NCBI GenBank assembly: GCA_905478415.1
Contig: CAJQIG010000001.1
Location: forward strand, 245,892-309,891
Direction of reading: 5' to 3'
DNA length: 64,000 nucleotides
DNA from: an uncultured Patescibacteria group bacterium
GTDB taxonomy: Bacteria; Patescibacteriota; Microgenomatia; UBA1400; PJMF01
Of this stretch, positions 25,297-62,140 are shown one piece after another (within the stretch, counting starts at the first letter, position 1; the number at the start of each line of letters is the position of its first letter). The translations under genes were made by a program, and so were the position numbers. Below the pieces are notes generated by a model. The model made no database searches. It worked only from the letters and a program-made list of their open reading frames with translations, and had not been told where the DNA came from.

Positions 25297-25311
25297 TAAT
25301 TTTTACCCATC

Positions 25312-25929: not shown

Positions 25930-25930
25930 A

Positions 25931-47132: not shown

Positions 47133-47147
47133 TACTATCTAGATTTG

Positions 47148-47636
47148 CTATTTTTCAAGTTGTTCTTTAAAAAACTTTAGTTCTTTATAGGTGTGGTTAT
47201 ATACAGCTTTTTCACCTTTAAATACACTCACAAAAAACCAGTGGATCACCTTACCAAAAACTGAGTCTGGAAAATCCATAAAAACATTATGATTTAAGTG
47301 TGTGCCATCTTCTTTTTCTTCGAGTGTGAGCAAACCACCTTCTGGAATTCTTATCTTAAAAAATAAAATTGGATATACAGCAACACCTGTCCATACCAAT
47401 ACTTTAGGACGATCTGCATACATTATTTGACCCTTTAAATCTGCATAAAAATTTGCGACTGTCTCTTTCTGATGAAACGTCACTTCGGTGTGCGGTCTAT
47501 TGTCTCTACTATTAAAAACCAAGCCCAAGTGCTCCTCTGGATTTGAAGCAGTCCAGTTCACAGGATCATGTGCATAATCCCAAATTTTTTCTGGTGAATT
47601 TTTAATGGTTATGTTGGTATTTTGTTTTAATAACAT
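47148..47636 (-). CDS. SRPBCC (START/Bet v1-like) superfamily protein
   Basis: Length and pattern KIWDYAHDPVNW...TFHQKETVANFYADLKG are typical of polyketide-cyclase/AHSA1-like folds. Low specificity. Confidence 0.4.
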   Translation of the reverse strand: MLLKQNTNITIKNSPEKIWDYAHDPVNWTASNPEEHLGLVFNSRDNRPHTEVTFHQKETVANFYADLKGQIMYADRPKVLVWTGVAVYPILFFKIRIPEGGLLTLEEKEDGTHLNHNVFMDFPDSVFGKVIHWFFVSVFKGEKAVYNHTYKELKFFKEQLEK

Positions 47637-47642
47637 AGTAAT

Positions 47643-49793
47643 TTAGAGTTTTAGCTCAACCTTTCTAAGTGTCATTGCATTAATAACTACTACCACGCTT
47701 GAGAGACTCATAAGCAACGCTCCCACAGCAGGACTGAGGCGAAACCCAAAAGGAATAAATAGTCCTGCAGCCGCGGGAATAGCAACTAGATTATATCCAA
47801 GAGCCCACCAAAGATTTTGCAACATCTTTGAGTATACTTTTCTTGATAAGAGTATGAGTCTCACAAGGTGTTGTGGATTACTTTGAGTAAGAATAATATC
47901 TCCGGCTTCAACCGCTACATCCGTACCTGCTCCAATAGCAACTCCCACGTCTGCCTGTGTTAAAGCTGGGGCATCATTGACACCATCTCCAGCCATAATG
48001 ACCACATTGCCTTGCTCCTGAAGTTGCTTAATATGCTTATATTTGTCTTCTGGCAGTACTTCTGCAAATACTAGATCTATTTCCAGTTCTTTTGCAACTG
48101 GCTGGGCAGCTGACTTAATATCACCTGTTAACATTGCAACTTTCACTCCAAGTTTATGTAGTTCTTGCACTGCTTGTTTTGATTCTTCTTTGATTTCATC
48201 ACTGAGTGCAATTACTCCCAATATTTCAGAATCACTAGAAATGAAAACAGGAGTTTTACCTTTACTCGCCAATTGATCTAGAGCTTCTTGAGATGTTTTA
48301 GTCCAAACTTTTCTTTCTTCCATTAATCGCTGGTTTCCTAAAAAGTATTCTTTCTTTTCAAAATATCCTTGCATACCTCTGCCTGCTAGATTTTTAACCT
48401 TAGTTGCTTCACTGAAAGTAATCTTTTTCTCTTGTAAGTAATCAAGAATAGACAAACCAATGACATGAGAAGAGTGTGATTCTATAGCTCCAGCAACTTT
48501 GAGTAGTTGGTCTTCTTCTCCAGAAATCACTACCACGTCAGTTACGCCGAACTCTCCTTTTGTCAACGTTCCCGTTTTATCAAAAACTACGTAATCAGTG
48601 CTTTTTACAATCTCAATTTTTCCCATATCTTTAATAAATACTCCATTTTTGACAGCTAGCCTGGTTGCAATAGTTGAAACAGTCGGTATAGCCAAACCCA
48701 AAGCATGAGGACAAGCAATCACTAATACGGTAATTGCTAGTGTTGCAGAAAAAACTAAGGGTTGTCCAATTACTACTGACCAAATAAATAACGATGAAAA
48801 CGATACAGCTATAGCAAAAAATGTAAGCCATTTCGAGGCCTTATCAGCTAATTTTTGAGCAGAAGGTTTTGTCTGCTTAGCTTGAGAAATAAGGCTTTGA
48901 ATTTGACCGATGGTAGATGAATCTCCAACACGTAATAATTTAATTTCAACAGAACCATCAATACTAATTGCCCCAGCTACAACTTCTGAGCCCACATCTT
49001 TCTTAACTGGCTTTGACTCTCCTGTAATATGTGATTCATTAAAACTTCCACTACCTTTAATAATTTCTCCATCAGCTGGAGCTTTTTCCCCTGGTTTAAC
49101 AATAACAATGTCGCCTTCTTTCAGTCTTGAAATCTCAACCTCTGTTACACCTGACTCCGTTTTAAGATGTGCTTCCTTTGGAAGTAATTTTGCTACTTCT
49201 TGCAGTGCATCTCCAGCTGCTGTAGATGATTTTGCTTCTAAAAAATGTCCAAAAAGCAGCACCCAAATAAGAGTAGCTATTTCTAAATAAAATTCAACTT
49301 GAAGAGCCGGTATAAAGGTGGATAGTGCTGAAAATATGTATCCAGAACCAACTCCAAGCGAAACCAGCGTCATCATGCCATATTGTCTTGCCATAATTTC
49401 ATGGCGTGCATGGTCAAAAAAAACCAAGCCAAAATAAAAGATTATAGAAGCAATGCCAAACTCAAGTAATGACCTCAAAGCAAAGTCTGGGACACCTAAA
49501 AATTTTACAGCTGGCTCAGAAAAGATAGCTAGAGGAACCAGGAGAACGGTAACAATATAAAATCTTCTTAAAAATTCATGAGCTGCTTCTGGAGTTGCCA
49601 TCATGCTAGCGTGATCATGTTTGTCATGTCCACCACCCATCTCACTTTTTTTAACTAATTCCATACCACACTTGGAACATTCCCCAGGATGGTCCTGGTG
49701 TATTTCTGGGTGCATGGGACAGGTATAATAATCAGCTTGGTGGTTATGTGCTACATGTTGCATATTTTTCTTACTGTGATGTGAGTGTTTCAT
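47643..49793 (-). CDS. copB: CopB-type copper P1B-3 ATPase (TM6 CPH motif) with a His-rich N-terminus and a CPMHPE...CxxCGM heavy-metal-binding domain
   Basis: MKHSHHSKKNMQHVAHNHQ; YTCPMHPEIHQDHPGECSKCGMEL; TGES; ACPHALGLAIP; DKTGTLT; MLTGD; GDGVNDAPAL. Confidence 0.85.
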   Translation of the reverse strand: MKHSHHSKKNMQHVAHNHQADYYTCPMHPEIHQDHPGECSKCGMELVKKSEMGGGHDKHDHASMMATPEAAHEFLRRFYIVTVLLVPLAIFSEPAVKFLGVPDFALRSLLEFGIASIIFYFGLVFFDHARHEIMARQYGMMTLVSLGVGSGYIFSALSTFIPALQVEFYLEIATLIWVLLFGHFLEAKSSTAAGDALQEVAKLLPKEAHLKTESGVTEVEISRLKEGDIVIVKPGEKAPADGEIIKGSGSFNESHITGESKPVKKDVGSEVVAGAISIDGSVEIKLLRVGDSSTIGQIQSLISQAKQTKPSAQKLADKASKWLTFFAIAVSFSSLFIWSVVIGQPLVFSATLAITVLVIACPHALGLAIPTVSTIATRLAVKNGVFIKDMGKIEIVKSTDYVVFDKTGTLTKGEFGVTDVVVISGEEDQLLKVAGAIESHSSHVIGLSILDYLQEKKITFSEATKVKNLAGRGMQGYFEKKEYFLGNQRLMEERKVWTKTSQEALDQLASKGKTPVFISSDSEILGVIALSDEIKEESKQAVQELHKLGVKVAMLTGDIKSAAQPVAKELEIDLVFAEVLPEDKYKHIKQLQEQGNVVIMAGDGVNDAPALTQADVGVAIGAGTDVAVEAGDIILTQSNPQHLVRLILLSRKVYSKMLQNLWWALGYNLVAIPAAAGLFIPFGFRLSPAVGALLMSLSSVVVVINAMTLRKVELKL

Positions 49794-49841
49794 ACCTTCA
49801 TTATGACGATACTACTGATTGCTGTCATCACCAATGTTTTG

Positions 49842-50423
49842 TTATTTATTGCTTGCTTTTTTTATAAAAAAATATATTCCTGATAATAAAAATGAAATAA
49901 ATGCAAACCAGGTTAATCCTGATTGAATTCCAAACAAATTACCACCCCAACCCATCATTGACATGTCCCTTGGGTAAAAATTATTTGATTCATTATCTCT
50001 GAGTCCCATCATGGAGCCCCCCGTCATCATTCCTTGTGAATAACTGGTTCCACAACCCAAGTACCTACTTCCCATACGTATATGTACTTGTCTTAATGAT
50101 TCTGACCCTTCGCCACCCATCATTCGATCCATAACTTCATGAGCCTCTCCAGGGTGCTGTTGTTCCATCACCGCATCTCCAAGTTGCTCTAGGTCATCTT
50201 CACTTATTTCGTCACAACTTACCTCTTGAATAGTAGTACTACCTTGCTTCTCGAGTATTGCTTGTAAGACAGTTTCAATGGACTCTCCATGTTGAGTTGT
50301 TTCTGTATCACTGCTTTCAACTTCATTTAAACCCATCATTCCCCCTTGAGCTTGAGCTATTTTAGTATGAAAAAACAACAGATTCAAAAAAAGAAAAAAA
50401 ACTACAAATAGAAAACGTTTCAT
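49842..50423 (-). CDS. Methionine-rich secreted or membrane-anchored protein (putative Cu(I)-binding; MMG/MxxM clusters)
   Basis: Signal peptide, then MMGLNEV..MDRMMGGEG..SQGMMTGGSMMGLRD..DMSMMGWGG, and a C-terminal TM. Met-rich motifs as in CopB/PcoB/CusF-type copper binders. Confidence 0.55.
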   Translation of the reverse strand: MKRFLFVVFFLFLNLLFFHTKIAQAQGGMMGLNEVESSDTETTQHGESIETVLQAILEKQGSTTIQEVSCDEISEDDLEQLGDAVMEQQHPGEAHEVMDRMMGGEGSESLRQVHIRMGSRYLGCGTSYSQGMMTGGSMMGLRDNESNNFYPRDMSMMGWGGNLFGIQSGLTWFAFISFLLSGIYFFIKKASNK

Positions 50424-50436
50424 ATCAACCCTCCTG

Positions 50437-50835
50437 TTACTTTGTAGCAGTATTCAAGGCACTTATCAGTTTACTCTCCACATCTTCAGCAATCACAGCA
50501 ACATCCGGATTACTTGATAATGTCAGAGCAACAGAAGGCTTCATTACACTTATAAAAACACGAGTATCTTCTTCATAGACAATTACATTACAAGGAAGAA
50601 GAAGCCCTATCTCTCTTTCAGCTTGCAATGCCTTATATGCATTTGGTGGGTTACATGCACCAAGTATCATGTATTTTGAATAATGAGTATTTAATTTTCT
50701 TTTAAGTGTTTCTTGAACATCAATCTGAGTCAAAATCCCAAAACCTTCTCTATTCAAAGAATCAATTATATCTAACACAGCATCTGAGAACTTTCCTTCA
50801 TACTGTTTTGTGACTGCATATTTTACTGTATTCAT
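50437..50835 (-). CDS. DUF302-domain protein, copy 2
   Basis: Roughly 80% identical to 25312-25743 (estimated by eye). Confidence 0.6.
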   Translation of the reverse strand: MNTVKYAVTKQYEGKFSDAVLDIIDSLNREGFGILTQIDVQETLKRKLNTHYSKYMILGACNPPNAYKALQAEREIGLLLPCNVIVYEEDTRVFISVMKPSVALTLSSNPDVAVIAEDVESKLISALNTATK

Positions 50836-50838
50836 ACG

Positions 50839-51093
50839 TTACCCTCCAATATATTTCTCTGGATCATCTCTAAAATGAGTTTTGCAGTGATCAGAACAAA
50901 AAAAATATGTCGTATCTTTGTATTGCAGACTATATCTGGATTTTTGAGATACATCCATCCCACATACTAAGTCAATGTCACCAACACTGGGCTCAATATG
51001 CATTCCCAGTTTAGACAATTCTTTATCAGTTACTGTTACCATAAGAACTTCCTTAAAATACTTTTTATTGACTTGCTTCTTACATACTAACAA
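50839..51093 (-). CDS. YHS/TRASH-domain metal-binding protein (84 aa)
   Basis: VCGMDVSQKSRYSLQYKDTTYFFCSDHCKTHF: a CGM...FCS..C YHS domain. Confidence 0.7.
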   Translation of the reverse strand: MLVCKKQVNKKYFKEVLMVTVTDKELSKLGMHIEPSVGDIDLVCGMDVSQKSRYSLQYKDTTYFFCSDHCKTHFRDDPEKYIGG

Positions 51094-51126
51094 AGAGCAG
51101 ATGAAGCGAAGATGAAATCTTGCTCT

Positions 51127-51759
51127 TTATCTTGCGATCTGTTCTGGTGAATTATTTTTATTTGTATTAATGTACTTCTGAATCAAAACCTCATCCACAC
51201 TTTCCAACTCCATCATTTTTCCCCATGAAGCAACTACTACATTTGAATCATTTTTTGACCGAGGGGACACTATGACACTTTGTGGATTGTCTTTACCAAT
51301 ATTCCTCAACTTTTCTATTGATTCATCATCAATATTTTTGTATGAAATCCAAATTCCTCCATGTTCTAAACCATGCACAGCTGCTTTATCTTCAATTTCT
51401 TCTTTATATACCCCCCAGTTTTCTGCCAAAGATAGGTGATCGCCTGAAGTTGGAGGATTTGTTTGGTACTCTACAACTGCTTGAGAGGAAATATGCTCTC
51501 TTCCTTCAATCTCAAACTCAGTCACCTTGCCATCCAACGAAACTTCTTTAACCTCTTCTTCAAACTCAATCTGTTTTGGTGTCTTTTTTGTAATCTGTTT
51601 GTAACTAACAACTACTACTAGTAAAACTAGTAGTGTAAGAAAGGTCTTTTTCGTCTTTTGAAATACAGCCGTGCTCTTTTTTTGATTTCTCTTTAATTCC
51701 TTGATTTTTCTTCTTCGCTCATGTTTAGGCAACTGATTCCATTCTTCTGGATATTGCAT
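51127..51759 (-). CDS. DUF3105-family membrane-anchored protein
   Basis: PPTSGDH...HGLEHGGIWISY conserved blocks. Single TM after a basic N-terminus. Confidence 0.5.
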   Translation of the reverse strand: MQYPEEWNQLPKHERRRKIKELKRNQKKSTAVFQKTKKTFLTLLVLLVVVVSYKQITKKTPKQIEFEEEVKEVSLDGKVTEFEIEGREHISSQAVVEYQTNPPTSGDHLSLAENWGVYKEEIEDKAAVHGLEHGGIWISYKNIDDESIEKLRNIGKDNPQSVIVSPRSKNDSNVVVASWGKMMELESVDEVLIQKYINTNKNNSPEQIAR

Positions 51760-51782
51760 AACTGTCCCCTCATTACATTATT

Positions 51783-52532
51783 TTATACTGCCAACGTATT
51801 CAAATTAAAAAACTGAAGTAATTTTATAGAAACTAACTCAACTCTTCCGAGTATTAGTAGTACCCCCATCAAAAGTATCACTAAAGCAGCGAGTATATTT
51901 AGATATTTCCCCACTTTTTTTGTTACTGAAAGTTTCGTAGCTATTTGTTCAAAGAATAGTGCCACTACTAGAAATGGCAGACCTAAACCAACTCCATATG
52001 CTAGTAAAAGACTAACCCCCTTGAATAAACTTTCAGCCTGAGCTGACCAAAAAAGAATGACTGCTAACACAGGCCCTATACATGGTGTCCATGCAAAACC
52101 AAAAGTTAAGCCTACTAGAAACGAGTTCAGTTTTCGAAATCGAGTAGGTGAGAGGGGTAACGAAATTTTTCTTTCACGATATAGAAAAGTTGGTTTAAGT
52201 ACTTTTAACATAAATAAACCCATGAGAATAAACAGAGCCCCACCAGCTTTCTGAATAAATGGTTTATAGACACCCAACATTCTTCCCAAGGTATTGGTTG
52301 TAGCTCCCAATAAGACAAAAACAAATATAAAACCAAGAGTAAAGATAAGTCCATTTAAGAAGATATCTCGTTTGTAGATTACTTTACCCAGGTCGTTCTC
52401 TGTTCTAGAAACGGTGAGCCCTGAAAGGTAGGCAATATATGTTGGAACTAGTGGGAGCAAACAAGAGGCGAAAAAAGTTATAATCCCACCTATAAAAGCA
52501 ATTAAGAGGTTTACTTGTGATCCATCAAACAT
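51783..52532 (-). CDS. ccdA: Cytochrome c biogenesis / thiol-disulfide electron transporter CcdA (DsbD family)
   Basis: SCLLPLVPTYIAYLSG (CxxP..P) in TM1 and a second Cys motif WTPCIGP. Six TM helices. Confidence 0.8.
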   Translation of the reverse strand: MFDGSQVNLLIAFIGGIITFFASCLLPLVPTYIAYLSGLTVSRTENDLGKVIYKRDIFLNGLIFTLGFIFVFVLLGATTNTLGRMLGVYKPFIQKAGGALFILMGLFMLKVLKPTFLYRERKISLPLSPTRFRKLNSFLVGLTFGFAWTPCIGPVLAVILFWSAQAESLFKGVSLLLAYGVGLGLPFLVVALFFEQIATKLSVTKKVGKYLNILAALVILLMGVLLILGRVELVSIKLLQFFNLNTLAV

Positions 52533-52600
52533 ATACTTTTTTTCTAATCAAACTTATAAAAAAGCAGGCAATCTTATAATTGATTGCCTGCTCACACCTC

Positions 52601-53464
52601 TTATAAATATTTTTCGATCGCTTGCTTCACCTGTTCATAAGGTAAGGCTCCTGGAATTAGCTCTTGAACTCCATCATCTGTGACGATAAATGTCCCCGGA
52701 GTTCCTGTGACTCCTGCTGCGCTGCCAGTTGTAAACTGATCTTGGACTCTTTGTGCCATTTCATCACTATCTAAACAGTTCTGAACTGCGGCTTGATCTG
52801 CACCAGCTTCAGCTCCCAGTGCTGCTAAGTCTGATAATGGAAATCCTGTTCCATTTGAACTTGTCCTTTCAAAGTAAAGATCTCCGAACTTCCAAAAGGC
52901 ATCATTACCGGCCAAACTTCCAACACACTCAGCTGCCTCAGCTGCCTTTTGGGCGTTAGCATGAAAATTCAACGGATAATGCCTATAAACCCATGCTATC
53001 TCATCTCCATATTCCTCCAGGATTTGTTGCATTGTTGGGTGAAAACGCTGACAAAATGGACACTCAAAATCTGAGTACTCTACAAGAGTAATCTTTGGAT
53101 TCTTTGCCCCTCTTTTATACTCATTAGCCTCAACAGGTGGTAAATCCCCCAGTTGAGCATCTGTTGGCCCAGAAGGGGCATTAGGCACAGTTGGAGGTTG
53201 TGCAACACCCACTGGACCAGTATTACTGGCACCCTTATTTGACCCATTGGCTAACATTTGATTTTCGGTCCACAATGAACCAATAAAAAAACCACCAATA
53301 GAAAATAAACCAATAATAATGAATAAAACAAAATTACTGTTTATAAAACCCAAAAATGATTGTAAAGAATACGACTGCGATCCTTGCATATGTAACTTCC
53401 TATACTGAATATAACTAATACCTCCTACAACTGTAGGAGGTATTGACAATAATGTCAATTGCAA
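52601..53464 (-). CDS. Membrane-anchored DsbA-like thioredoxin-fold oxidoreductase
   Basis: EYSDFECPFCQRFHP (CxxC) and the cis-Pro region GTPGTFIV. TM anchor, then a Pro/Gly-rich linker. Confidence 0.75.
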   Translation of the reverse strand: MQLTLLSIPPTVVGGISYIQYRKLHMQGSQSYSLQSFLGFINSNFVLFIIIGLFSIGGFFIGSLWTENQMLANGSNKGASNTGPVGVAQPPTVPNAPSGPTDAQLGDLPPVEANEYKRGAKNPKITLVEYSDFECPFCQRFHPTMQQILEEYGDEIAWVYRHYPLNFHANAQKAAEAAECVGSLAGNDAFWKFGDLYFERTSSNGTGFPLSDLAALGAEAGADQAAVQNCLDSDEMAQRVQDQFTTGSAAGVTGTPGTFIVTDDGVQELIPGALPYEQVKQAIEKYL

Positions 53465-53467: not shown

Positions 53468-54436
53468 TTATTCTCGAGGAGAAAAAAGTATGGCAGGAGA
53501 AAAATTAATCTTATCTGATTCATAATGGCTCACACAGTCATTTGTCTGACATTCCCTACTATCACTACAAACTAAGTCGCGAAGATCTGCATTTATTCTT
53601 GAAGGATTAAAAACAAACAATAGAAACATACTAGTAACCGTCACTACACTTACTGTCATTTTCTTCAAATCAATTTTATTTGAGTCAATGCTCCCAGAAA
53701 CTAAGTATTCTATCCTTTGAGTAATTGGTGGTGTAGCAAACTGAAGAGCAACCCCATCTTCAAACGTAAGGCTTAATGCTAAAGATGAGCATAGATGGCT
53801 CTTAGTTCTTTGAGTTTCTATTACAAAAGCATCAGCGGCCAACTCAAATTCCAGTATTAGTTTTTGAACTAATACTTCTATTACTGGAACAAAAAAAAGG
53901 AGTGAACTAATTAACTTTGAGAATAACAATAACCACATGTGGAAATGTCTAACATGATAGGACTCATGGAGTACAACCGCCTCAAGTTGCTTAAAAGAAA
54001 ATGTATCTATCATACGGTTAGATACAATAATTTTTGGCTTAAAAAAACCAATGGTATATGCTGTTGAATCAACTGAATCAATAATTGAAAAAGAAATATA
54101 CTCCAAATCATGCTTTCTAATAATTGAGTTTAATTTTTGAGAAATTGATTTTGATTTCAAGTGAGATCCAAGCTTTCTGTAAGAGAACAGAAAGACTACT
54201 AAACGCCTCAGCATTAAAAGTAAACCCAAAATACCAGTTGCTAAAACAAGCAATGATAAAAGAGTGTAAAAATTAAAATGAACATGTTCCTGAAGATCAC
54301 TCAAAACATTAGTACACACTGTGATTAGAGAGTTCGCTATAAATTGGATGTTAATTTCTAATAAAGTAAATCCTAAAACAAGTATGCTCGCTGATATAAA
54401 AAATATGCTCAGTGGGGTTACTACTCTAAAATTCAT
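53468..54436 (-). CDS. BlaR1/MecR1-like M56 zinc metalloprotease (signal transducer) lacking the penicillin-binding sensor domain; Cys-rich C-terminal tail
   Basis: Four N-terminal TM helices, an HEXXH site (LHESYHVRHFHMW), and C-terminal CSDSRECQTNDC. The start overlaps the blaI-like stop by 4 nt. Confidence 0.7.
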   Translation of the reverse strand: MNFRVVTPLSIFFISASILVLGFTLLEINIQFIANSLITVCTNVLSDLQEHVHFNFYTLLSLLVLATGILGLLLMLRRLVVFLFSYRKLGSHLKSKSISQKLNSIIRKHDLEYISFSIIDSVDSTAYTIGFFKPKIIVSNRMIDTFSFKQLEAVVLHESYHVRHFHMWLLLFSKLISSLLFFVPVIEVLVQKLILEFELAADAFVIETQRTKSHLCSSLALSLTFEDGVALQFATPPITQRIEYLVSGSIDSNKIDLKKMTVSVVTVTSMFLLFVFNPSRINADLRDLVCSDSRECQTNDCVSHYESDKINFSPAILFSPRE

Positions 54437-54801
54437 TTTTTTTGAAGTGTGTCTATCATCTTTTTTCTCGTTTCTTCAGATAATTCATCGATACCATTAA
54501 CAAATGCTAGTAAAGCCTCATCTCCAAACTGACGGACAAAATTGTCCATGCTCTGACTCACAATTTTTTGAATAACATTCTTTTTCTTATCTTTTGATGT
54601 ATACACATGTGTTTTACCTTCTAACATTCTTTCAAGCACTCCTTTATCAACAAGTCTAGTCATTACTGTTTGAACGGTATTATAGGCAATTCGTTTATTT
54701 TTACTTAAATCTTGAAAAATATCTCTAGCTGTTGAACTTTTTTTCTTCCATATAGAGTTCATTATTTCCTGTTCAAGGGGTCCAAAAGAAACTTTTTTCA
54801 T
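54433..54801 (-). CDS. BlaI/MecI/CopY-family winged-helix repressor (no CopY-type C-terminal Cys cluster)
   Basis: N-terminus MKKVSFGPLEQEIMNSIWKKKSSTARDIF...YNTVQTVMTRLVDKGVL matches BlaI. Operator-like palindrome directly 5' of the ATG. Confidence 0.8.
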   Translation of the reverse strand: MKKVSFGPLEQEIMNSIWKKKSSTARDIFQDLSKNKRIAYNTVQTVMTRLVDKGVLERMLEGKTHVYTSKDKKKNVIQKIVSQSMDNFVRQFGDEALLAFVNGIDELSEETRKKMIDTLQKK

Positions 54802-54802: not shown

Positions 54803-54816
54803 CCTACGAGTGTAGG
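54803..54816. promoter_or_regulatory. Palindromic operator candidate CCTACGAGTGTAGG (contains TACGAGTGTA, a TACAnnTGTA-like cop/Bla box) abutting the blaI-like start
   Basis: Identical core to 25931-25944; 5-bp arms CCTAC/GTAGG. Confidence 0.5.
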
Positions 54817-54847: not shown

Positions 54848-55756
54848 TTAGTGATTTTCACAACAACTCTTAGAATTCGATGTGTTTTCTTTATCAGTAC
54901 TTTCACTTTTAACTTGTTTATATATATAAACAACAAATAGTAGTACAAATACAACAAATAACACATTAACAAATGGAACCTGAGCAGTTACATTTGTAAC
55001 ATTCATGGCAACTTGGTTAATTGATTTTGTAATTGATTCATCTCCTGAAGACATAGAGACCTTACCCGTAAGTGTAATTACTATCATTAGAATACCTGAT
55101 AAAAAAAACACAACTGATCCAGCCAAAGTAGAGACAGTAACGTTTCTTTGTTTGTCTAAAAATGTAAATTGGGCTAAAGATTTTCTAAATACTGGATTAC
55201 TCAAGATATTTCTTTTATTTATGAATAAAGATGCTAAATAGAGAGGAAATACCATTCCGAGCACATAACTAAAGCCTATTAATAATGAGAATAGTATTGA
55301 AGGACTAAACGAGCTGAGGGTAATTACCCCAATTAAGACTGGGGCACAACAAGATGATGTAACCCCAGAAACAACTCCTAACATAAAGGTAGATGCTATA
55401 TCTGAGCCATTTTTTCCACCGCTATTCTTTTTAGAGTTTCCAATTTTCAAATTAATCATTGAAAATTTAAAACCAATGAGGGTTAAAAATGAAGCAATAA
55501 TCATAATAAAACCACCAATGAGGTATGTTTTATCATGAAAGTCCATGAAGAACTCAGTTAAAATCTTTGCACCTAACACAATTGGCATCATCACCACAAA
55601 AATACCTAGAGAATAAATAAAAGTCATAAACAAGACTTTTTCTTTCTCTTTGAAAATATTTCCTATATATGCAGGAAATAGATAAGAAATACAACATGGA
55701 GCAAATAATGCCACCATACCTGCAACAAAGGCAGCTATTAAAGATATTTGAATCAT
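54848..55756 (-). CDS. Polytopic membrane protein with vicinal Cys pairs (TM1 FAPCCISYLFP and C-terminal SKSCCENH); DsbD/MerT-like thiol or metal transfer candidate
   Basis: Eight or more TM helices. CC in the first helix and CC in the cytoplasmic tail are reminiscent of MerT Cys pairs. Confidence 0.45.
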   Translation of the reverse strand: MIQISLIAAFVAGMVALFAPCCISYLFPAYIGNIFKEKEKVLFMTFIYSLGIFVVMMPIVLGAKILTEFFMDFHDKTYLIGGFIMIIASFLTLIGFKFSMINLKIGNSKKNSGGKNGSDIASTFMLGVVSGVTSSCCAPVLIGVITLSSFSPSILFSLLIGFSYVLGMVFPLYLASLFINKRNILSNPVFRKSLAQFTFLDKQRNVTVSTLAGSVVFFLSGILMIVITLTGKVSMSSGDESITKSINQVAMNVTNVTAQVPFVNVLFVVFVLLFVVYIYKQVKSESTDKENTSNSKSCCENH

Positions 55757-55808
55757 GTAAGCAAGTTTACATGAATGAAGATGAACAGAAGATGAAAATT
55801 GTTATCTA

Positions 55809-56069
55809 TTACTTTTGAGTAATCATAGTATAAACAGTAGCAAAAGAATAAACTAAAAGAAAGCTTATCACTCCTGCTTCAATCATTCCACTCACTAATC
55901 CAATTACTGTTAAGTTAAAAAACATGTGCCATTTTGACATCTGTTCCGCAGCAGAAACATAGAGCCCCATATTGGCTAATAACCAAATAACCAGCATTAA
56001 CAGTGCTGACCAAACTGCAGCTGCTAAAGCAATTGAGCTGGTGTTAAGTTTGTTTTTTTTGTTCATCAT
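55809..56069 (-). CDS. Small membrane protein (86 aa, 2 TM)
   Basis: Two hydrophobic helices. Within the co-directional array. Confidence 0.4.
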   Translation of the reverse strand: MMNKKNKLNTSSIALAAAVWSALLMLVIWLLANMGLYVSAAEQMSKWHMFFNLTVIGLVSGMIEAGVISFLLVYSFATVYTMITQK

Positions 56070-56089
56070 ACATATATCCTTTTATTAAC

Positions 56090-56551
56090 TTATAGTTTCC
56101 AATTAAAAGAACCTGATTGATTATCAATTCCTTCTATCTCAATAGTAACTGAAGTTACAGTATCTTTCAATTCTGCAAAGACAACCTGACCTGATAAGTG
56201 ATGGCCACCAGCTTCACCTGTCCATTCTTTGACTAAGTACTCATCTCGATTTTGATCATACATTTTAATAATCTTTGTATAATCGTAATCTAGTTCAACC
56301 GAGTGTGTATTCAATTCTAAGTTAAATAGGACCTCTTTATTCGTCTCTAGCTGCACTGGAGTTAACTCTAATGTAACTGCTCCCATTTCCTTTAATTGGG
56401 ATTGTAAACCGGAGTTCTCAGCAACCTTACTGACTACTTCTTGCTCCTTAGCTTTACCCAATACTTTCTTTTCTGTCTTTCCTCCAAATGATTGTATTAC
56501 TATAAAACTTAAAACTAATACCGAAAAAATAAACACTAACTTTCTTTTCAT
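56090..56551 (-). CDS. Secreted or lipoprotein-like protein (153 aa) with a GGHH motif
   Basis: Signal peptide MKRKLVFIFSVLVLSFIVIQS. No Cys. EWTGEAGGHHLSGQ may bind metal. Confidence 0.4.
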   Translation of the reverse strand: MKRKLVFIFSVLVLSFIVIQSFGGKTEKKVLGKAKEQEVVSKVAENSGLQSQLKEMGAVTLELTPVQLETNKEVLFNLELNTHSVELDYDYTKIIKMYDQNRDEYLVKEWTGEAGGHHLSGQVVFAELKDTVTSVTIEIEGIDNQSGSFNWKL

Positions 56552-57075
56552 ACGACCTTTCTCACATGTACTTTAAAATACTTTTTTATATCTCTTATTT
56601 TTGGTTTTTCAAAAATAAACCATAACATCATAAACATGCCAATAAAATTAGCAATAACTCCTAAGATAAGTAACTCTTCTTGATACTCTGTTAGAAATAC
56701 TGCAGCAGCAGAAAGCCCAAGTATAGGTAAAACATCAACAACATGATGTGCGCAGCAAGCAACCATGGCCATTCCAGATACTGCAGTACCAGTCCCAACT
56801 GCTAAGTTAGCATCACTTTTATCTCTCAAACTAAAAAAAACACCATTTTTCATCAGCCAATACAAACCCATTTGTATGGAAAAACCTAATAGCAACAGAC
56901 CCATCCATGGCTGAGAAAGCACAAACTGTTGAAATGGATGAGATACGTCTTTAGTAACTAGAAACAATAATAGATAATAGAAACTACTCAGTGAAACAAG
57001 GCCAATAAAGAATCCTTTAAAAAAAATAGTTATATTTTTGTCTCTAAGTAAACTTTTTTTAAACATAGAACCCAT
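56548..57075 (-). CDS. Four-TM membrane protein with an intramembrane ACCAHH motif
   Basis: MAMVACCAHHVVDVLPILGL within TM3. Start overlaps the upstream stop. Confidence 0.45.
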   Translation of the reverse strand: MGSMFKKSLLRDKNITIFFKGFFIGLVSLSSFYYLLLFLVTKDVSHPFQQFVLSQPWMGLLLLGFSIQMGLYWLMKNGVFFSLRDKSDANLAVGTGTAVSGMAMVACCAHHVVDVLPILGLSAAAVFLTEYQEELLILGVIANFIGMFMMLWFIFEKPKIRDIKKYFKVHVRKVV

Positions 57076-57243
57076 TTAACAACAGCCCTTGGGAGCTTGT
57101 TCGCTCTTCTTTGCTTTCTCATTTTCTGCTTTACCAATTTTCCAAAACAATCTTTTAATAAAATTCTTTGGTTGAGTACTCTCATTTTCTTCACTGGTAG
57201 TTTCTAAAACGTTCATCTTTGGCTTACCACAACAATCACTCAT
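57076..57243 (-). CDS. Unannotated small protein (55 aa) with N-terminal and C-terminal vicinal Cys pairs (MSDCCGKP...KGCC); candidate thiophilic-metal or sulfur carrier
   Basis: Perfect SD TAAGGAGG 4 nt upstream of the ATG at 57243. Stop abuts the next ATG. Below the 60-aa ORF-track cut-off. Hydrophilic body with a Cys doublet at each end. Confidence 0.55.
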   Translation of the reverse strand: MSDCCGKPKMNVLETTSEENESTQPKNFIKRLFWKIGKAENEKAKKSEQAPKGCC

Positions 57244-57252
57244 AAAGCCTCC

Positions 57253-58023
57253 TTACTCTTTTATTACATTTGCAGTAATGACTGCTTCTAATTCTTTATA
57301 GTCATCTCTATCTGTTTCAATATAAATGGTTCTAGAGAGCTCACCTAAGTCAGTATCGTCTTTATGTACCGCCGGATCAAAACTCACGCTTACTGTAGTA
57401 CTTTCATAAGGGCCAAGCTCTTCATTTTCAACAGTTGCCTTAGTACAGCCACATGAAGTTGATACTCTGGTTATTTTTATAGGTAATGGCATATAATTAG
57501 TAAACGTAAACTCTGTAGTTGCTACATCACCATAAACAACTGTCCCCAATGCTCTTTTTTCAGGTAATAGACTCACTGAAACTTGTTGTTCTTTATATGC
57601 ATTCGTTCCACCATCCAAATCGTAAACGCTTTCATATCCTAGTTCGCTCAACTCTTTTGAAGCTCTTGCACTCATACTGCCAGACCTACAATAGACTGCA
57701 ATAGGTGTAGACTTATCCTCAGGCAATTGCTCTAAATACTGAGGAATTTGATCAAACGGAATCAAAGCATCTGTTCCAGGAATATGAGTCTGCTCGGGTG
57801 TGTGAACGTCTACAACAAAGACAGTATCATCTGCAATTAGTTGATTAAATTCTTCTGAGTTAACCAATATAACACCACTTTCATTTTCTACTATCTCTTG
57901 TGAAGAAATAAACGATGTTACATATGACTGCAATTGATTTCTAAATGTAAACCAAACGGTCACAATCAATAATAAAAAAAGACCAATTAACAAACTTTTA
58001 ACATTAATAGTATTATTTTTCAT
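57253..58023 (-). CDS. Membrane-anchored rhodanese (sulfurtransferase) domain fused to a DUF1573 beta-sandwich domain
   Basis: Rhodanese active-site loop VYCRSGSMSARA. C-terminal DUF1573-like TFTNYMPLPIKITRVSTSCGCTKA. N-terminal TM. Confidence 0.7.
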   Translation of the reverse strand: MKNNTINVKSLLIGLFLLLIVTVWFTFRNQLQSYVTSFISSQEIVENESGVILVNSEEFNQLIADDTVFVVDVHTPEQTHIPGTDALIPFDQIPQYLEQLPEDKSTPIAVYCRSGSMSARASKELSELGYESVYDLDGGTNAYKEQQVSVSLLPEKRALGTVVYGDVATTEFTFTNYMPLPIKITRVSTSCGCTKATVENEELGPYESTTVSVSFDPAVHKDDTDLGELSRTIYIETDRDDYKELEAVITANVIKE

Positions 58024-58025
58024 AG

Positions 58026-58517
58026 CTACTTCCTTACTTCACCAAACATTTTGAATGATAATTTTGGATTTGATGCATCATTTGTATCAACAGTTATCTC
58101 TCTGTTAATTGAACCAACTCCACTTGGACCATGAAATAATGGGTCAAAAACAGCCTTAATAATAACAGACTCACCTGGTTGTACTTCATAAACGTACTTT
58201 GATTTAGAATGCATACCGAATTCCGGTGATTCTTTTTCTCCAGAAACAAATCTGGCATTCGTACAACTACATGAAGTTATTAAATTATAAAACTGTAATA
58301 CATCAGAACCCTCATTAATAACCTCATACTCTGCAGTTATTTTTCCATCATTAATTCCAACTTCACCAAAATCATGAAGTGCATTCTGGACAGATGCTTT
58401 TGCATTTGAAGTTGCAACTACCTGCACTTGAGAATCATCAGATAGCGCAAATACAGCTCCCCCAAAAAGTATTACCGTAATAGCAATAATAGAAATTACC
58501 ACAATATTATTTTTCAT
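58026..58517 (-). CDS. DUF1573-domain protein (membrane-anchored), paralogue 1
   Basis: FYNLITSCSCTNARF...VFDPLFHGPS motif set shared with 57253 (C-terminal half) and 60675. Confidence 0.6.
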   Translation of the reverse strand: MKNNIVVISIIAITVILFGGAVFALSDDSQVQVVATSNAKASVQNALHDFGEVGINDGKITAEYEVINEGSDVLQFYNLITSCSCTNARFVSGEKESPEFGMHSKSKYVYEVQPGESVIIKAVFDPLFHGPSGVGSINREITVDTNDASNPKLSFKMFGEVRK

Positions 58518-58573
58518 ACACTTCCTTTATTACTCATCTTTATATGTTGATTATATTCAATTTTTCGAATATA

Positions 58574-58610
58574 TTACACTTAACTTACAATCATAATAAC
58601 CTAAGTTACA
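58574..58610. promoter_or_regulatory. Phased TTACA direct repeats (offsets 0, 11 and 32 bp) in the divergent promoter region; candidate OmpR-family response-regulator binding sites
   Basis: TTACA at 58574, 58585 and 58606 lies between the minus-strand array and the plus-strand two-component operon. Confidence 0.35.
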
Positions 58611-58620
58611 TGAAAAGAAG

Positions 58621-59301
58621 ATGAAAATACTATTAGTAGAAGATGACAAGACTCTTTCAAGTACAATTAAAGAAACTTTAGAAAGTCAAACATTTGCTGT
58701 TGATTTGGTTTCAACAATAGATGCTGCACAATTTCAAATAGAAGAGTTCACCAAAGAGTATGATTGTATCGTTCTAGATATCAATCTCCCTGATGGTAAT
58801 GGCTTTGACCTATGTAAAGACATTCGTAATAAAAAAATCACGACACCTATCATCATGATGACAGCCAGGGATACTCTTGAAGAAAAAATTAAAGGACTCA
58901 ACATCGGAGCTGATGATTACATCACTAAACCATTCTCAATTCAGGAATTAATTGCCAGAATAAAATCAATTATAAGAAGAAGTAGTAAAGAACCTTTGCC
59001 AATAATTACAGTCGGAAGACTAGAGGTTAATCCACAGACGATGAGAGTCTTAAATAATAAAAAACCAATCAATTTATCCTCTAGAGAATTTTCAGTTTTA
59101 GAAATCTTAGCAAGACATAGTGATGAAGTTGTTACCAGAAGTATGTTAATGGAACATGTCTGGGGAAGTGACTTTGAATCATTCTCAAACGTAATAGATG
59201 TCTATATAAAAAACCTAAGAAAAAAAATCGATGCTGGTCAACAAAATAAGTTACTACACACAATCAGAGGTAGCGGATATAGCTTATCTAATAAAAGATG
59301 A
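58621..59301 (+). CDS. OmpR-family response regulator (receiver plus winged-helix)
   Basis: Receiver motifs LVEDD, VLDINLPDG, MMTARD. C-terminal wHTH RLEVNPQT...SREFSVLEIL...VYIKNLRKKID. Confidence 0.85.
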   Translation: MKILLVEDDKTLSSTIKETLESQTFAVDLVSTIDAAQFQIEEFTKEYDCIVLDINLPDGNGFDLCKDIRNKKITTPIIMMTARDTLEEKIKGLNIGADDYITKPFSIQELIARIKSIIRRSSKEPLPIITVGRLEVNPQTMRVLNNKKPINLSSREFSVLEILARHSDEVVTRSMLMEHVWGSDFESFSNVIDVYIKNLRKKIDAGQQNKLLHTIRGSGYSLSNKR

Positions 59302-60650
59302 TATTTTTTAAAACACTCCGCGGGAAACTAACCATTATATTTTTTGTTTCAACAGTTACTATTACTATTCTAACTTTTTTTCTATTAATCTTTACTACTC
59401 AAAAACTAATTTTTGATCAAGTAAATCATCATCTACATATTGTCATAAACGAAGCTAAGAAAATTGTTGAAGAAAATCATGAAGTTGATAATATCGAACC
59501 ACTAAAAAACTTGGTAAGTGCTCAAGGCATGACTGTTATTTTATTATCAAGTGATGGATCTCCAATCCTACAAACAAATAGTTTTGATGTGGCAGACGTA
59601 ACAGAACATCAAATGCAACAAATTGTATTCTCAAGTACCAATAAAGAAGAACCACAACACTTTAGTGTTAATCAAATGCAGTTTGCTACTGTTCCCGTAA
59701 GTATATACGGTTATCAAGATGGAATATTAGCAGTTGGATTCTCTACAAAGATTATTAACAACACAATAAAAGAAATAACTACTATTATTATTTTTGTACT
59801 TCTACTAAGTATTACTGTCGTCAGTATAGTATGGCAAACAATCATTAAACATTATCTTTTACCTTTAGAAAAGATTTCTCAGTCTGCTTTACAAATTAAA
59901 AAATCATCTGACCTAAATAAAAAAGTTAAAACAAATACCACTACAATTGAACTCAAAAACATCACAGCATCTTTTAATAATTTACTAGAGAAATTAAAAC
60001 AAGTTTTTGAAGAGGAACATCTATTTTTTTCTGATACTGCGCATAGCTTAAAAACACCTCTAGCCGTTATTAGATCATACATTGAAACACTACCCAGACA
60101 ACAAAACAAAAAGAAAAATGAAATTCTAAATTATATAGATTCCTTAAATGAAACAATTCAAGACTTATTAATTATTTCTAAAATTAACACTAGTTATCCG
60201 AAAAACAGTAAGCAAATTAATTTTTCAGAAATAGTTAGTACGATTGCTGAACTAACTCAGACAATAGGGTTAGAAAAAAATATTACGGTTAATCAAGTTA
60301 TTGAAAAAAATATTTTTATTAATGCAGATGAACAGCTGTTAACCAAAGCTATATTAAATGTAATAAAAAATGCTGTTGATCATGAAAGTCAGAATGGCAC
60401 AATTACAATCAGTTTGAATAAAAAAAATAATATTTCGGAGCTTTTAATTAAAGACACTGGTGTAGGGATTAGTAGCAAAGATCTCAAAAGTATCTTTAAT
60501 AGATTTTACCAAAGTAAAAATTCTCAATCAAAAAAGGGTAATGGACTTGGCCTCTCTATATCCAAAGCTATTATTGAAAGATTTGAAGGAAAAATAACTA
60601 TTTCATCTAAAATTAAAAAGGGGACTTCAGTTTTCATCTTCTTTTCATAA
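59298..60650 (+). CDS. Sensor histidine kinase (two TM helices, HAMP-like, HisKA, HATPase)
   Basis: H-box FFSDTAHSLKTPLAVI. N box and G boxes NAVDHES, IKDTGVGIS, GNGLGLSI. Confidence 0.85.
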   Translation: MIFFKTLRGKLTIIFFVSTVTITILTFFLLIFTTQKLIFDQVNHHLHIVINEAKKIVEENHEVDNIEPLKNLVSAQGMTVILLSSDGSPILQTNSFDVADVTEHQMQQIVFSSTNKEEPQHFSVNQMQFATVPVSIYGYQDGILAVGFSTKIINNTIKEITTIIIFVLLLSITVVSIVWQTIIKHYLLPLEKISQSALQIKKSSDLNKKVKTNTTTIELKNITASFNNLLEKLKQVFEEEHLFFSDTAHSLKTPLAVIRSYIETLPRQQNKKKNEILNYIDSLNETIQDLLIISKINTSYPKNSKQINFSEIVSTIAELTQTIGLEKNITVNQVIEKNIFINADEQLLTKAILNVIKNAVDHESQNGTITISLNKKNNISELLIKDTGVGISSKDLKSIFNRFYQSKNSQSKKGNGLGLSISKAIIERFEGKITISSKIKKGTSVFIFFS

Positions 60651-60674
60651 TAGCCTAAGTATACTCACGGCTAT

Positions 60675-61184
60675 ATGCAAGATATTTTAAAAAAACACAA
60701 GTTCTCAATTATAGCAATTTTTCTAACTTTTTCTGTCCTGGTGATGATATTTGCATTCCTTAAAAATAATTTTGGAATTAGAGCTAATGGAAGCTTAAGT
60801 GATAATCAAACATTACAGGATTTGGGAGAAATTCCCATGTCTGAGGGAATTAAAAAAGTTACCTATTCTTACACAAATTATTCTGAAGAAACCTTTCAAT
60901 TAAATAACTTGTACACAACTTGTATGTGTACAAAAGCTAAAATTTCAATTAACGGTACTCAATCTTCTTTTGCAGGTATGAAGGGTCATAGCGCTGGACT
61001 GAAACCAATTAACCCAAATATGACTCTTAAACCTGGGGAAACTGTCACTGTCTTTGCAGAGTTCGATCCAAATGCACATGGACCAGAAGCAACTGGACCA
61101 ATTACAAGATCAATACTTCTAGATACCAATAGTAATGAATTACCACAAATTGAATTTAAATTTTCAGGAGTAGTTACAAAGTAA
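60675..61184 (+). CDS. DUF1573-domain protein (membrane-anchored), paralogue 2
   Basis: LNNLYTTCMCTKAKIS...EFDPNAHGPE motifs. Confidence 0.6.
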   Translation: MQDILKKHKFSIIAIFLTFSVLVMIFAFLKNNFGIRANGSLSDNQTLQDLGEIPMSEGIKKVTYSYTNYSEETFQLNNLYTTCMCTKAKISINGTQSSFAGMKGHSAGLKPINPNMTLKPGETVTVFAEFDPNAHGPEATGPITRSILLDTNSNELPQIEFKFSGVVTK

Positions 61185-61204
61185 TAAAAGTAATAAAGGG
61201 AAAA

Positions 61205-62140
61205 ATGGTAAGTGATAAAAAACTTTCAAAAATAATCATAGGTTCAGCTTTAATAGTTGTAGCTATTATTGCAATCAACCAAATAGTATTAGTTGATCTG
61301 AATATAGAACCAAGATATAAATTTTACAAGAAAGGTGAAGCGATATCTGTTGTCGAGTCCGGAAGTGAAAAAGTAAATATTGATGCACTTCACGCACAAG
61401 TTGTACCAGCACAAGGAGTAACTCTTCCAATTGAATGGGGTGATTTGGGCAAAAAAATGGTAGATGACGGGGTAATTGATGAAACTAAATTTAGACAATT
61501 ATTTCAAAATGGTTTAAGTAATCAAGAAGAAGAAATACTATCAGGCTGGTGGACAGAACCAATTGTTTTAGACCAAGAAAATAGTAGGTTTTTACTTGAT
61601 GTCCTCTGGGCATTTGGACTAGCAAATAAAAATGAGATTTTAACGAATGGTGAAATGACTGATCCTCAGTATGGAGGCGAAGCAGGTAATTTTGCGGCTA
61701 CTGGTGGTTGGAGCCTATCAACTGGAAAGCCAATGGATCACTACAGTATGCATTCATATGTAACTTTAAATAAAGAACAACAAGATCGTGTTGATTCAGT
61801 ATCTAGAGGAATCTACAGACCATGTTGCGGAAATTCAACACATTTTCCAGACTGTAACCATGGAATGGCAATGCTAGGATTGTTACAATTAATGGCAGCA
61901 AACAACGCTACAGAAAAAGAAATGTATGAAGTTGCTCTCAGAGTAAACTCGTACTGGTTCCCACAAACATATGTTGACCTTGCAACATACTTTAAAGAAC
62001 AAGGAACTGAGTGGAAGGATGTGGATCCGCAACTAGTTCTAGGTAAAGAATATTCAAGTTCAGCAGGATATGCTCAAACTAGATCTCAAATTAAATCTAT
62101 TCCACAAGAAGTAAATGGAGGTGGTGGCTGTGGAGCATAA
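61205..62140 (+). CDS. Hypothetical membrane-anchored protein (311 aa) with a Gly-rich C-terminal tail ending in GGGGCGA
   Basis: N-terminal TM (IIIGSALIVVAIIAI). Conserved-looking CCGNSTHFPDCNHGMAML cysteine cluster. Confidence 0.45.
   Translation: MVSDKKLSKIIIGSALIVVAIIAINQIVLVDLNIEPRYKFYKKGEAISVVESGSEKVNIDALHAQVVPAQGVTLPIEWGDLGKKMVDDGVIDETKFRQLFQNGLSNQEEEILSGWWTEPIVLDQENSRFLLDVLWAFGLANKNEILTNGEMTDPQYGGEAGNFAATGGWSLSTGKPMDHYSMHSYVTLNKEQQDRVDSVSRGIYRPCCGNSTHFPDCNHGMAMLGLLQLMAANNATEKEMYEVALRVNSYWFPQTYVDLATYFKEQGTEWKDVDPQLVLGKEYSSSAGYAQTRSQIKSIPQEVNGGGGCGA

Follow-up and report, generated by a model that had tools for sequence, protein, structure and literature searches.

Cysteine-Pair Membrane Proteins in a Candidate Copper Homeostasis Locus of an Uncultured Patescibacteria Bacterium

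Gene Content and Cysteine Motifs of the Locus

We analyzed a 64,000-nucleotide stretch of the genome of an uncultured Patescibacteria group bacterium (hereafter the window), which carries an array of genes for small, mostly membrane-associated proteins with paired cysteines. The array occupies positions 54848-58517 of the minus strand and consists of seven closely spaced genes, which we assign below to two modules, A and B. Two more genes of this kind lie on the plus strand.

58026-58517, minus strand: DUF1573 Ig-like protein (Pfam PF07610), 163 residues, SCSCT; module A
57253-58023, minus strand: rhodanese-DUF1573 protein (Pfam PF00581 and PF07610), 256 residues, CRSGSMS and SCGCT; module A
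57076-57243, minus strand: 55-residue peptide, MSDCC...KGCC, with a strong AAGGAGG Shine-Dalgarno sequence 4 nucleotides before the ATG
56548-57075, minus strand: four-helix membrane protein (CC-x-HH protein), 175 residues, MVACCAHH; module B
56090-56551, minus strand: anchored extracytoplasmic beta-sandwich without cysteine (tri-His protein), 153 residues; module B
55809-56069, minus strand: two-helix membrane protein without cysteine, 86 residues, recognized by tblastn and hydropathy; module B
54848-55756, minus strand: CcdA/DsbD-type protein (CC/CC protein), 302 residues, FAPCC, SSCCAP and the tail SKSCCENH; module A
60675-62140, plus strand: third DUF1573 CxC protein (TCMCT), followed by an anchored CC protein of 311 residues

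A preliminary description of this region had reported four adjacent products with cysteine doublets. Every motif it quoted is present on the minus strand where it was placed, but only three of the products carry a CC dipeptide; the doublets of the DUF1573 and rhodanese-DUF1573 proteins are of the CxC type. Nor are the CC products all adjacent, as two cysteine-free genes (56551-56090 and 56069-55809) separate the ACCAHH protein from the polytopic 302-residue protein. In the latter, APCC and SKSCCENH were confirmed and a third, overlooked pair was found (SSCCAP, residues 136-137), and a further CC protein lies just beyond the region first described (61205-62140, RPCCGN..FPDCNHG). Among 70 non-overlapping open reading frames (ORFs) of the window (20,247 residues, 0.82% cysteine), eight CC dipeptides were found against 1.36 expected, and seven of the eight fall within 54848-62140. 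All cysteines of these locus proteins are motif cysteines. The cysteine-pair proteins are confirmed as both real and conserved.

The peptide and the 175-, 153- and 86-residue products gave no match in a Pfam search, and the 175-, 302- and 55-residue products matched no Mer transporter in Pfam or NCBIfam at E values up to 0.1. The sources contain no names for these proteins, which are referred to here by their length or motif.

A Widespread Family of CC-x-HH Membrane Proteins

The CC-x-HH protein has 278 close homologues, none of which contains a Pfam domain. A profile search extended the family to 867 clusters at 50% identity in bacteria and archaea, and a scan of species-representative genomes located its genes in more than 536 loci. 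The carriers include bacteria of the candidate phyla radiation (CPR), Woesearchaeota, Methanoperedenaceae, Methanosarcinales, Nitrospirota, Chloroflexota, Bacteroidota, and Spirochaetes. Close relatives of the locus genes were found in Pacebacteria, WWE3, Parcubacteria, Chisholmbacteria, Beckwithbacteria, and Roizmanbacteria assemblies. Sequence searches returned no relative of the CC-x-HH protein in Pfam, NCBIfam, or PDB, and a full-text literature search for the CCAHH motif yielded nothing relevant. The protein looks like the founding member, as described here, of a widespread family that has not been described before.

We modeled the 175- and 153-residue proteins of the window separately with AlphaFold2 (AF2). 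The model of the CC-x-HH protein has a predicted local distance difference test (pLDDT) score of 88.8, and its comparison with known structures retrieved generic helical bundles only, without a meaningful neighbor. Cys107 and Cys108 sit on helix 86-115 of the model, the third of four, and hence within a transmembrane (TM) helix. The CC pair is kept in 149 of 150 representative clusters and the complete CC-x-HH motif in 144, so that the motif defines the family. The residues Q68, S100, M104, D/E114, P117, G120, N143, G146, and M150 are conserved in 83-99% of the 150 clusters, Y131 in 90%, and Q132 in 82%. From the helical periodicity, residues 100, 104, 107, 108, 111, and 114 of helix 86-115 would span an arc of about 120 degrees and may form a single stripe of ligands.

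Natural fusions provide a further clue. In relatives, the CC-x-HH protein is fused at its N-terminus to an HMA domain in 10 clusters, to YHS and HMBD domains in two, and to short CC tags in three (MDCCKN; GASCCD; and P0160, with an N-terminal NTNCC and a C-terminal REGCCQ). P0160 thereby has CC at both termini, like the 55-residue peptide. The N-termini with HMA or with YHS and HMBD domains carry no signal peptide. The fusions and the charge distribution fix the predicted topology, in which the N- and C-termini are cytoplasmic and the tri-His beta-sandwich lies outside. The same metal-binding domains occur on copper ATPases, including the ATPase of the window, whose N-terminus reads YYTCPMHPE...CSKCG.

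Several other families are associated with CC-x-HH genes. In P0258, a membrane methyltransferase domain of the PEMT/ICMT type is fused N-terminally to the CC-x-HH protein, and several CPR loci have a gene for 220-230 residues, similar to it as judged by eye, a short distance upstream of their CC-x-HH gene (L008:7235-7930, L048:6595-7254, and L070:7256-7918). A second family of membrane proteins with a cysteine motif, GC[PA]SCG, is encoded directly upstream of the CC-x-HH gene in L011 (7439-7933), L014 (1738-2283), and L023 (7245-7805). It is also fused to the 311-residue domain, at the N-terminus of the L050 homologue, in a build like that of the CC-x-HH/tri-His fusions described below. Homology between the GC[PA]SCG and CC-x-HH families was unsupported (hhalign probability 2.8%). 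A family of membrane proteins of 115-117 residues has H..CCGALL within helix 1 and GRCC.KK.HK beyond helix 2, a MerF-like pattern; it occurs in copper loci of Roizmanbacteria, with members at L048:1250-1600, L050:7351-7704, and L070:782-1129.

The Tri-His Protein, the 55-Residue Peptide and the 86-Residue Protein

The AF2 model of the tri-His protein (pLDDT 86.6) consists of a signal-anchor helix and a beta-sandwich. Across 52 sequences of the domain, H83, H117, and H118 are invariant and no cysteine is found. The domain accompanies the CC-x-HH protein closely: in 51 of the 150 clusters it is fused to it after an extra helix, and of the 54 loci with a separate tri-His gene, 50 have it immediately downstream of the CC-x-HH gene. 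This arrangement resembles CopC/CopD (PcoC/PcoD, YcnJ), whose outer copper-binding beta-sandwich is likewise encoded beside a membrane protein or in one chain with it. CopC/CopD, too, occur in operons for copper resistance that include a multicopper oxidase. However, no Pfam profile match to CopC (PF04234) or CopD (PF05425) was obtained, the histidine ligands are located elsewhere, and the beta-sandwich matches at the level of the fold only, with 5% identity. CopD itself is an eight-helix protein that lacks a CC motif.

The 55-residue peptide had been described as unannotated. It was called as a gene on 34 contig blocks, its relative in a sister species (locus L081) is 71% identical and retains both CC pairs, and the ratio of nonsynonymous to synonymous substitution rates (dN/dS) is 0.15, similar to the 0.08-0.22 of its neighbors. 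For these reasons, the peptide is a real gene. It is nevertheless confined to the two sister species: no relatives were found beyond them, with the peptide itself and one other protein retrieved among 5.8 billion, and in the other loci no ORF homologous to the peptide lies upstream of the CC-x-HH gene. Some of those loci instead contain unrelated hydrophilic peptides or tags with CC...CC(G).

The peptide is hydrophilic, rich in lysine and glutamate, and devoid of a TM segment. By analogy with the fused cytoplasmic tags, we propose that it is their detached, fast-evolving, free-standing equivalent and a putative metal-binding partner of the CC-x-HH protein. Its role would then be that of a free chaperone like CopZ. 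HMA, YHS/TRASH, and HMBD domains, found at the N-termini of P1B ATPases, also occur at the cytoplasmic N-terminus of CC-x-HH proteins. Unlike CopZ, the peptide has neither an HMA fold nor a CxxC motif but is a short Lys/Glu-rich chain with terminal CC pairs and a single relative. In the window (57073-57078), the TAA of the peptide abuts the ATG of the CC-x-HH gene in the same frame, with one stop codon between them, a junction that recalls the relatives with fused CC tags; in L081, the two genes are separated by a 4-nucleotide gap and lie in different frames.

The 86-residue protein had tblastn matches in four loci and in L081 and is conserved among the closest relatives only.

A CcdA-Type Protein with Doubled Cysteines and Its Partners

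The 302-residue protein belongs to the DsbD_TM family (PF02683; residues 5-177 score 33.5 bits, above the cutoff of 27.1) and was matched by phmmer to CcdA from Thermus thermophilus (5vkv) with an E value of 1.4e-5. The first cysteine of each pair (C21 and C136) aligns with a catalytic cysteine of CcdA 5vkv, and P20 and P139 are kept. The protein therefore possesses the cysteine and conserved proline of CcdA in both TM1 and TM4, with each cysteine doubled. According to hydropathy, the chain starts outside, crosses the membrane with seven helices, and ends with its tail in the cytoplasm. APCC is kept in 78 of 79 CC/CC homologues, and CC[AT]P in 80 of 80, a count that is biased because CCAP was one of the two patterns used to scan for CC/CC proteins. 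Both pairs can be regarded as defining the family. The tail SKSCCENH occurs only in the species of the window and in the sister species (L081). Apparent CC tails in L001, L039, and L009 were rejected because the tblastn alignments had run through stop codons.

All three DUF1573 copies of the locus match PF07610 (43.7, 55.9, and 34.9 bits), and [ST]SCxCT is kept in 18 of 18 and 66 of 66 DUF1573 homologues. The 163-residue protein has one TM segment (residues 5-23), and its sole cysteines are those of S-C-S-C-T. The rhodanese-DUF1573 protein also has one TM segment (residues 8-26); its rhodanese domain (PF00581, 50.3 bits against a cutoff of 22.2) has the catalytic cysteine in the active-site loop. 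The loop YCRSGxMS is kept in 10 of 11 and 18 of 20 relatives, and one more has YCKSGRMS. In L084 (366-1583), a high-GC, eukaryote-like ORF is joined onto the last 48 residues of a rhodanese-DUF1573 gene, and the contig is probably a chimeric assembly. The anchored 311-residue protein (61205-62140) has no match in Pfam or NCBIfam but contains the invariant motifs YRPCC[GD]N..FPDCNHGMA and, at the C-terminus, GGxCG[AV].

The Scs system is a DsbD-like system that links copper and thiol redox, with a membrane reductase and outer-face thiol proteins encoded by a copper-induced operon. The CC/CC protein resembles CcdA/DsbD in exceeding the DsbD_TM threshold with aligned catalytic cysteines, and resembles the ScsB-ScsC pair as a putative membrane reductase with outer-face thiol proteins and a link to copper. 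It differs from CcdA/DsbD in its doubled cysteines, the seventh helix, and the lineage-specific cytoplasmic CC tail. Its conserved neighbors are DUF1573 CxC proteins of Ig-like fold and the 311-residue CC...C...H proteins, not thioredoxin folds as in Scs, and a copper ATPase gene often follows the CC/CC gene immediately. By analogy with ScsB and ScsC, the CC/CC protein is most likely an electron carrier to the CxC proteins; alternatively, a metal could be bound between its four membrane cysteines.

Two Modules Interleaved in One Lineage

We compared gene order in two samples, one of 80 loci anchored on the CC-x-HH gene and an independent one anchored on the CC/CC protein, for which 80 metagenome loci were drawn from more than 522 found. 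The genes of the array also occur together in loci elsewhere, in several orders. A copper marker was present in 56 of the 80 CC-x-HH loci and in 35 of the 43 with a length of at least 12 kb. A Cu-type ATPase was encoded in 33 of the 80, at a distance of 100 nucleotides or less in seven. Among the CC/CC loci, an upstream CxC DUF1573 gene occurred in 59, the 311-residue protein in 57, and a Cu-type ATPase in 43, while the CC-x-HH gene was found in 20 and a rhodanese-bearing copy in only 20. In 13 of these 80 loci, the ATPase lies within 90 nucleotides after the CC/CC gene, and in six of the 13 the aligned segments overlap. Typically, the genes are arranged as YHS, DUF1573, 311-residue protein, (rhodanese-DUF1573), CC/CC protein, ATPase, (CC-x-HH, tri-His).

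In the closest named relatives (L001, L002, L007, and L039), the genes form two converging units. The first comprises DUF1573, rhodanese-DUF1573, and the CC/CC protein; the second, the ATPase (with a multicopper oxidase in L001) and the CC-x-HH, tri-His, and 86-residue proteins. In the window and L081 alone, the second unit has the peptide at its head and is inserted between the rhodanese-DUF1573 and CC/CC genes. Because this insertion is limited to the two, the array is a lineage-specific arrangement: two conserved modules interleaved in this lineage only, not one ancestral unit.

One distant locus departs from this picture. In L040 (6069-12534), from a Thermodesulfovibrio assembly, a fused CC-x-HH/tri-His gene is flanked by a CcdA gene on one side and, on the other, by genes resembling, by eye only, CcmH, a thioredoxin-like protein, CcmE, and CcmF, a context that does not match the copper pattern.

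Regulatory Elements

The preliminary description had placed the array under a BlaI/BlaR1-like switch, a divergent two-component system, or both. The elements that bear on this are as follows.

58610-58625, minus strand: direct-repeat box TTCATCTTCTTTTCAT, a candidate response-regulator site, upstream of the DUF1573 operon
55781-55796, minus strand: same box, upstream of the CC/CC CcdA-type gene
51101-51116, minus strand: same box, upstream of the run of YHS, DUF302, Met-rich, Cu-ATPase and multicopper oxidase genes
60633-60648, plus strand: same box, upstream of the third DUF1573 and 311-residue genes
58621-60650, plus strand: divergent OmpR-type response regulator and sensor kinase
53468-54801, minus strand: BlaI-type repressor and BlaR1-type M56 protease (Pfam)
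54803-54816 and within 53417-53444: palindromes CCTACnnnnGTAGG, directly next to the start of blaI and in the blaR1-dsbA gap

The TTCATCTTCnnTTCAT box occurs four times in the window against 0.38 expected, and none of 100 shuffles reached four. The boxes precede both module A units that flank module B, the ATPase run, and the DUF1573/311-residue pair, and the box recurs in related loci having the same two-component system. Direct repeats of this kind are typically bound by OmpR-family regulators. The sensor kinase has its best match in the heavy-metal model TIGR01386 (171.5 bits, below the cutoff of 292.6), and the response regulator scores 200.2 bits on cztR_silR_copR (TIGR01387), its third-best match, against a cutoff of 279.2. 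On account of the four identical boxes, the divergent two-component system probably switches the island on.

The BlaI/BlaR1 half of the suggested switch fares less well. Both proteins belong to the families named (Penicillinase_R 86.5 bits; M56 peptidase 63.7 bits), but the palindromes do not precede the CC genes; as they face blaI and dsbA, BlaI probably acts on its own gene and on dsbA, and not on the CC genes. Downstream of dsbA lies a strong terminator. CopY has a C-terminal cysteine motif, which the BlaI-type repressor of the window lacks; the CopY model also scores below its cutoff. The BlaR1-like protein has no penicillin-binding sensor domain and ends in a Cys-rich outer tail, CSDSRECQTNDCVSH (53468-53600), which could be a metal or redox sensor.

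The Surrounding Island

The window is part of a 584-kb metagenome scaffold. Between roughly 9.5 and 62 kb, its G+C content falls below that of the window ends. This low-GC stretch (9456-62140) starts at a tRNA-Glu and a large serine recombinase and encodes a type IV coupling protein, a type IV secretion system (T4SS) pilin, and a TraG/VirB4-type ATPase. These genes give it the appearance of an integrative conjugative element, carried by a CPR genome and rich in genes for metal resistance. A search for an attachment-site repeat of the tRNA-Glu end returned chance-level 12-mers only.

45705-53464, minus strand: DsbA-like, CcdA, DUF3105, YHS, DUF302, Met-rich, Cu ATPase, SRPBCC-like and multicopper oxidase genes

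The continuation of the array into CcdA, DsbA, Cu-ATPase, and multicopper oxidase genes, as first described, is borne out by Pfam and NCBIfam; the Cu P-type ATPase (47643-49793) exceeds the TIGR01511 cutoff of 397 with a score of 555.8 bits. A second copper cluster on the minus strand (23641-25944) encodes a DUF302 protein, a second multicopper oxidase, and a 67-residue GDCCVxC protein (NF041374, 92 bits), for which a literature search gave nothing relevant. In front of this cluster lie an identical copy of the palindrome near blaI, CCTACGAGTGTAGG, and the apparent first codons of a blaI copy (MKKISLRPLEQ...). Two Zn/Cd/Pb-type P1B ATPases and two more DsbA-like thioredoxin lipoproteins are encoded at 15759-23198, and a class-V aminotransferase of the cysteine desulfurase type at 16693-17907. 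The island is multi-metal, not copper-only.

Discussion

With moderate confidence, we regard the stretch as the thiol-rich core of a copper (soft-metal) homeostasis island, in which module B provides a relay and module A a thiol system. The identity of the metal, the roles of the ligands, the transfer, and its direction are what we infer from gene context, motifs, and fusions. The preliminary description had envisaged a periplasm-to-membrane thiol relay for a soft metal or for persulfide sulfur, with mercury transport as its model. The soft-metal half stands, as context and fusions indicate a thiophilic metal handled across cytoplasm, membrane, and outside, with copper in place of mercury as the most likely metal to judge from the neighboring genes. 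The term periplasm does not strictly apply, since CPR bacteria have a single membrane.

In module B (the peptide and the CC-x-HH, tri-His, and 86-residue proteins), Cu(I) would be passed by ligand exchange along the stripe of helix 3. From the cytoplasm to the outside, the stripe would run over Ser100, Met104, Cys107, Cys108, His110/His111, and Asp114. At its inner end, a cytoplasmic metal binder would take part, namely a fused HMA domain, YHS and HMBD domains, or a CC tag in relatives, and the free CC...CC peptide here; at its outer end, the anchored beta-sandwich with its three invariant histidines would do so. Either direction would be equally possible, import to a cytoplasmic acceptor, as for MerT and CopCD, or export toward the multicopper oxidase. 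Module A would be an outward-facing thiol system tied to the copper ATPase, mostly encoded directly upstream of the ATPase gene, and may provide the anchored CxC proteins, which would handle copper at the cell surface, with reducing power or with thiol ligands. Only tentatively do we go further and suggest that CC-x-HH proteins are ATP-independent conduits for copper (soft metals) and that the doubled-cysteine CcdA protein forms a second thiol-lined metal path together with the ATPase.

Several points weigh against this interpretation. As the CC-x-HH protein has no structural neighbor, a transport function cannot be borrowed from any relative, and four helices lacking an energy-coupling domain may indicate a relay or a sensor rather than a transporter. 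The ligand stripe follows from helix periodicity only. A Cys2His2 arrangement is also a classic zinc site, and the island encodes two Zn/Cd-type ATPases and the GDCCVxC protein. Ig-like folds are very common, which lessens the meaning of the fold-level match of the tri-His domain; the role of the peptide, with its one relative, leans on analogy with the fused tags. Finally, the bias in the CC[AT]P count and the L040 locus, in which a fused CC-x-HH protein stands among cytochrome c maturation-like genes (by eye), belong on the same side.

L040 would fit better with pure thiol-disulfide maintenance, in which every cysteine is redox-active instead of binding metal and a Dsb/Scs-like repair system keeps the thiols of outer-face proteins reduced under copper or oxidative stress; the CC-x-HH protein would then be a small membrane oxidoreductase of the DsbB or VKOR kind. 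Such a reading suits the CcdA-type module: the polytopic protein belongs to the CcdA/DsbD_TM family with aligned catalytic cysteines, DsbA-like and ordinary CcdA genes follow downstream, and Scs is a precedent. DUF1573 proteins also exist as selenoproteins with UGC at the CxC site (PMC9312934), usually a sign of redox catalysis. Yet the constant partner of the CC-x-HH protein is the tri-His domain, which lacks cysteine and cannot be a thiol substrate, the fused N-terminal domains are the metal binders HMA, YHS, and HMBD rather than thioredoxin folds, and the conserved Met, His, and Asp residues around the CC pair suit metal ligation. We therefore consider this explanation unlikely, although it is the strongest of the competing ones.

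Somewhat less probable still is that the system takes up a thiophilic metal other than copper, be it Hg(II), Ag(I), Cd(II), or Zn(II), in the manner of the Mer proteins. MerT needs a vicinal CC in a TM helix for mercury uptake, and MerE requires a cysteine pair (CxC) with an adjacent histidine in TM1 for uptake of Hg(II). The likeness of module B to Mer (MerT/MerP/NmerA, MerE, and MerF) extends from the small membrane protein with a cysteine pair in a TM helix, with histidine adjacent in MerE, to an outside metal-binding partner, a cytoplasmic Cys-pair acceptor, and the proposed ATP-free ligand exchange. The two Zn/Cd/Pb-type ATPases and the GDCCVxC protein of the island, the MerF-like small CC membrane proteins in L048, L050, and L070, and the suitability of Cys2His2 for zinc point the same way. 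However, the CC-x-HH protein has no sequence or Pfam relationship with Mer transporters, its motif is on helix 3 of four rather than on helix 1, and the outer partner is a His3 beta-sandwich rather than an HMA protein with CxxC. The absence of merA and merR, mentioned in the preliminary description, agrees with the window as far as merA is concerned, in which no ORF of merA size or type, such as a flavoprotein, was found; merR was not searched for exhaustively. The context here is one of copper: the recurrent neighbors are a Cu-type ATPase above the TIGR01511 cutoff, a multicopper oxidase, YHS proteins, and a Met-rich protein.

The persulfide half of the original proposal, in which the rhodanese would load sulfane sulfur onto the CC and CxC cysteines, for instance to make or detoxify sulfide at the surface, now appears improbable. 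The fusion of a rhodanese with a conserved catalytic cysteine to DUF1573, a weak similarity of the CcdA-type proteins in NCBIfam to the rhodanese/DsbD fusion selenoprotein TsoB, and the cysteine desulfurase at 16693-17907 are in its favor. But the rhodanese domain is present in only a quarter of the CC/CC-anchored loci (20 of 80), while DUF1573 and the 311-residue protein are near-constant. Its extracellular location keeps it apart from the desulfurase, no genes for sulfur oxidation or for sulfur carriers were seen, and the copper context would be left unexplained. That Cys-rich genes simply gathered on a mobile island without a joint function is very improbable: gene order varies among relatives, module B lies inside module A only in the window and L081, and the region resembles a conjugative island, but against this stand the repeated co-occurrence in hundreds of loci with several gene orders, the natural fusions, and the regulatory box common to four transcription units.

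A metal relay in a resistance operon is in itself a known kind of system; new are the CC-x-HH family with its tri-His partner and the doubled-cysteine variant of CcdA. While good descriptions of copper handling exist for proteobacteria and firmicutes, there are hardly any for CPR bacteria and DPANN archaea. Through its fusions and neighbors, an unannotated family of about 870 clusters and more than 536 loci gains a copper hypothesis. With their small size, the peptide and its fused counterparts lend themselves to simple metal-binding assays. The CC/CC protein would show an electron-transfer fold adapted to metal stress, and if Cu(I) indeed crosses the membrane without ATP, the CC-x-HH proteins would represent a new design of small transporter beside CopD and the MerT-type proteins.

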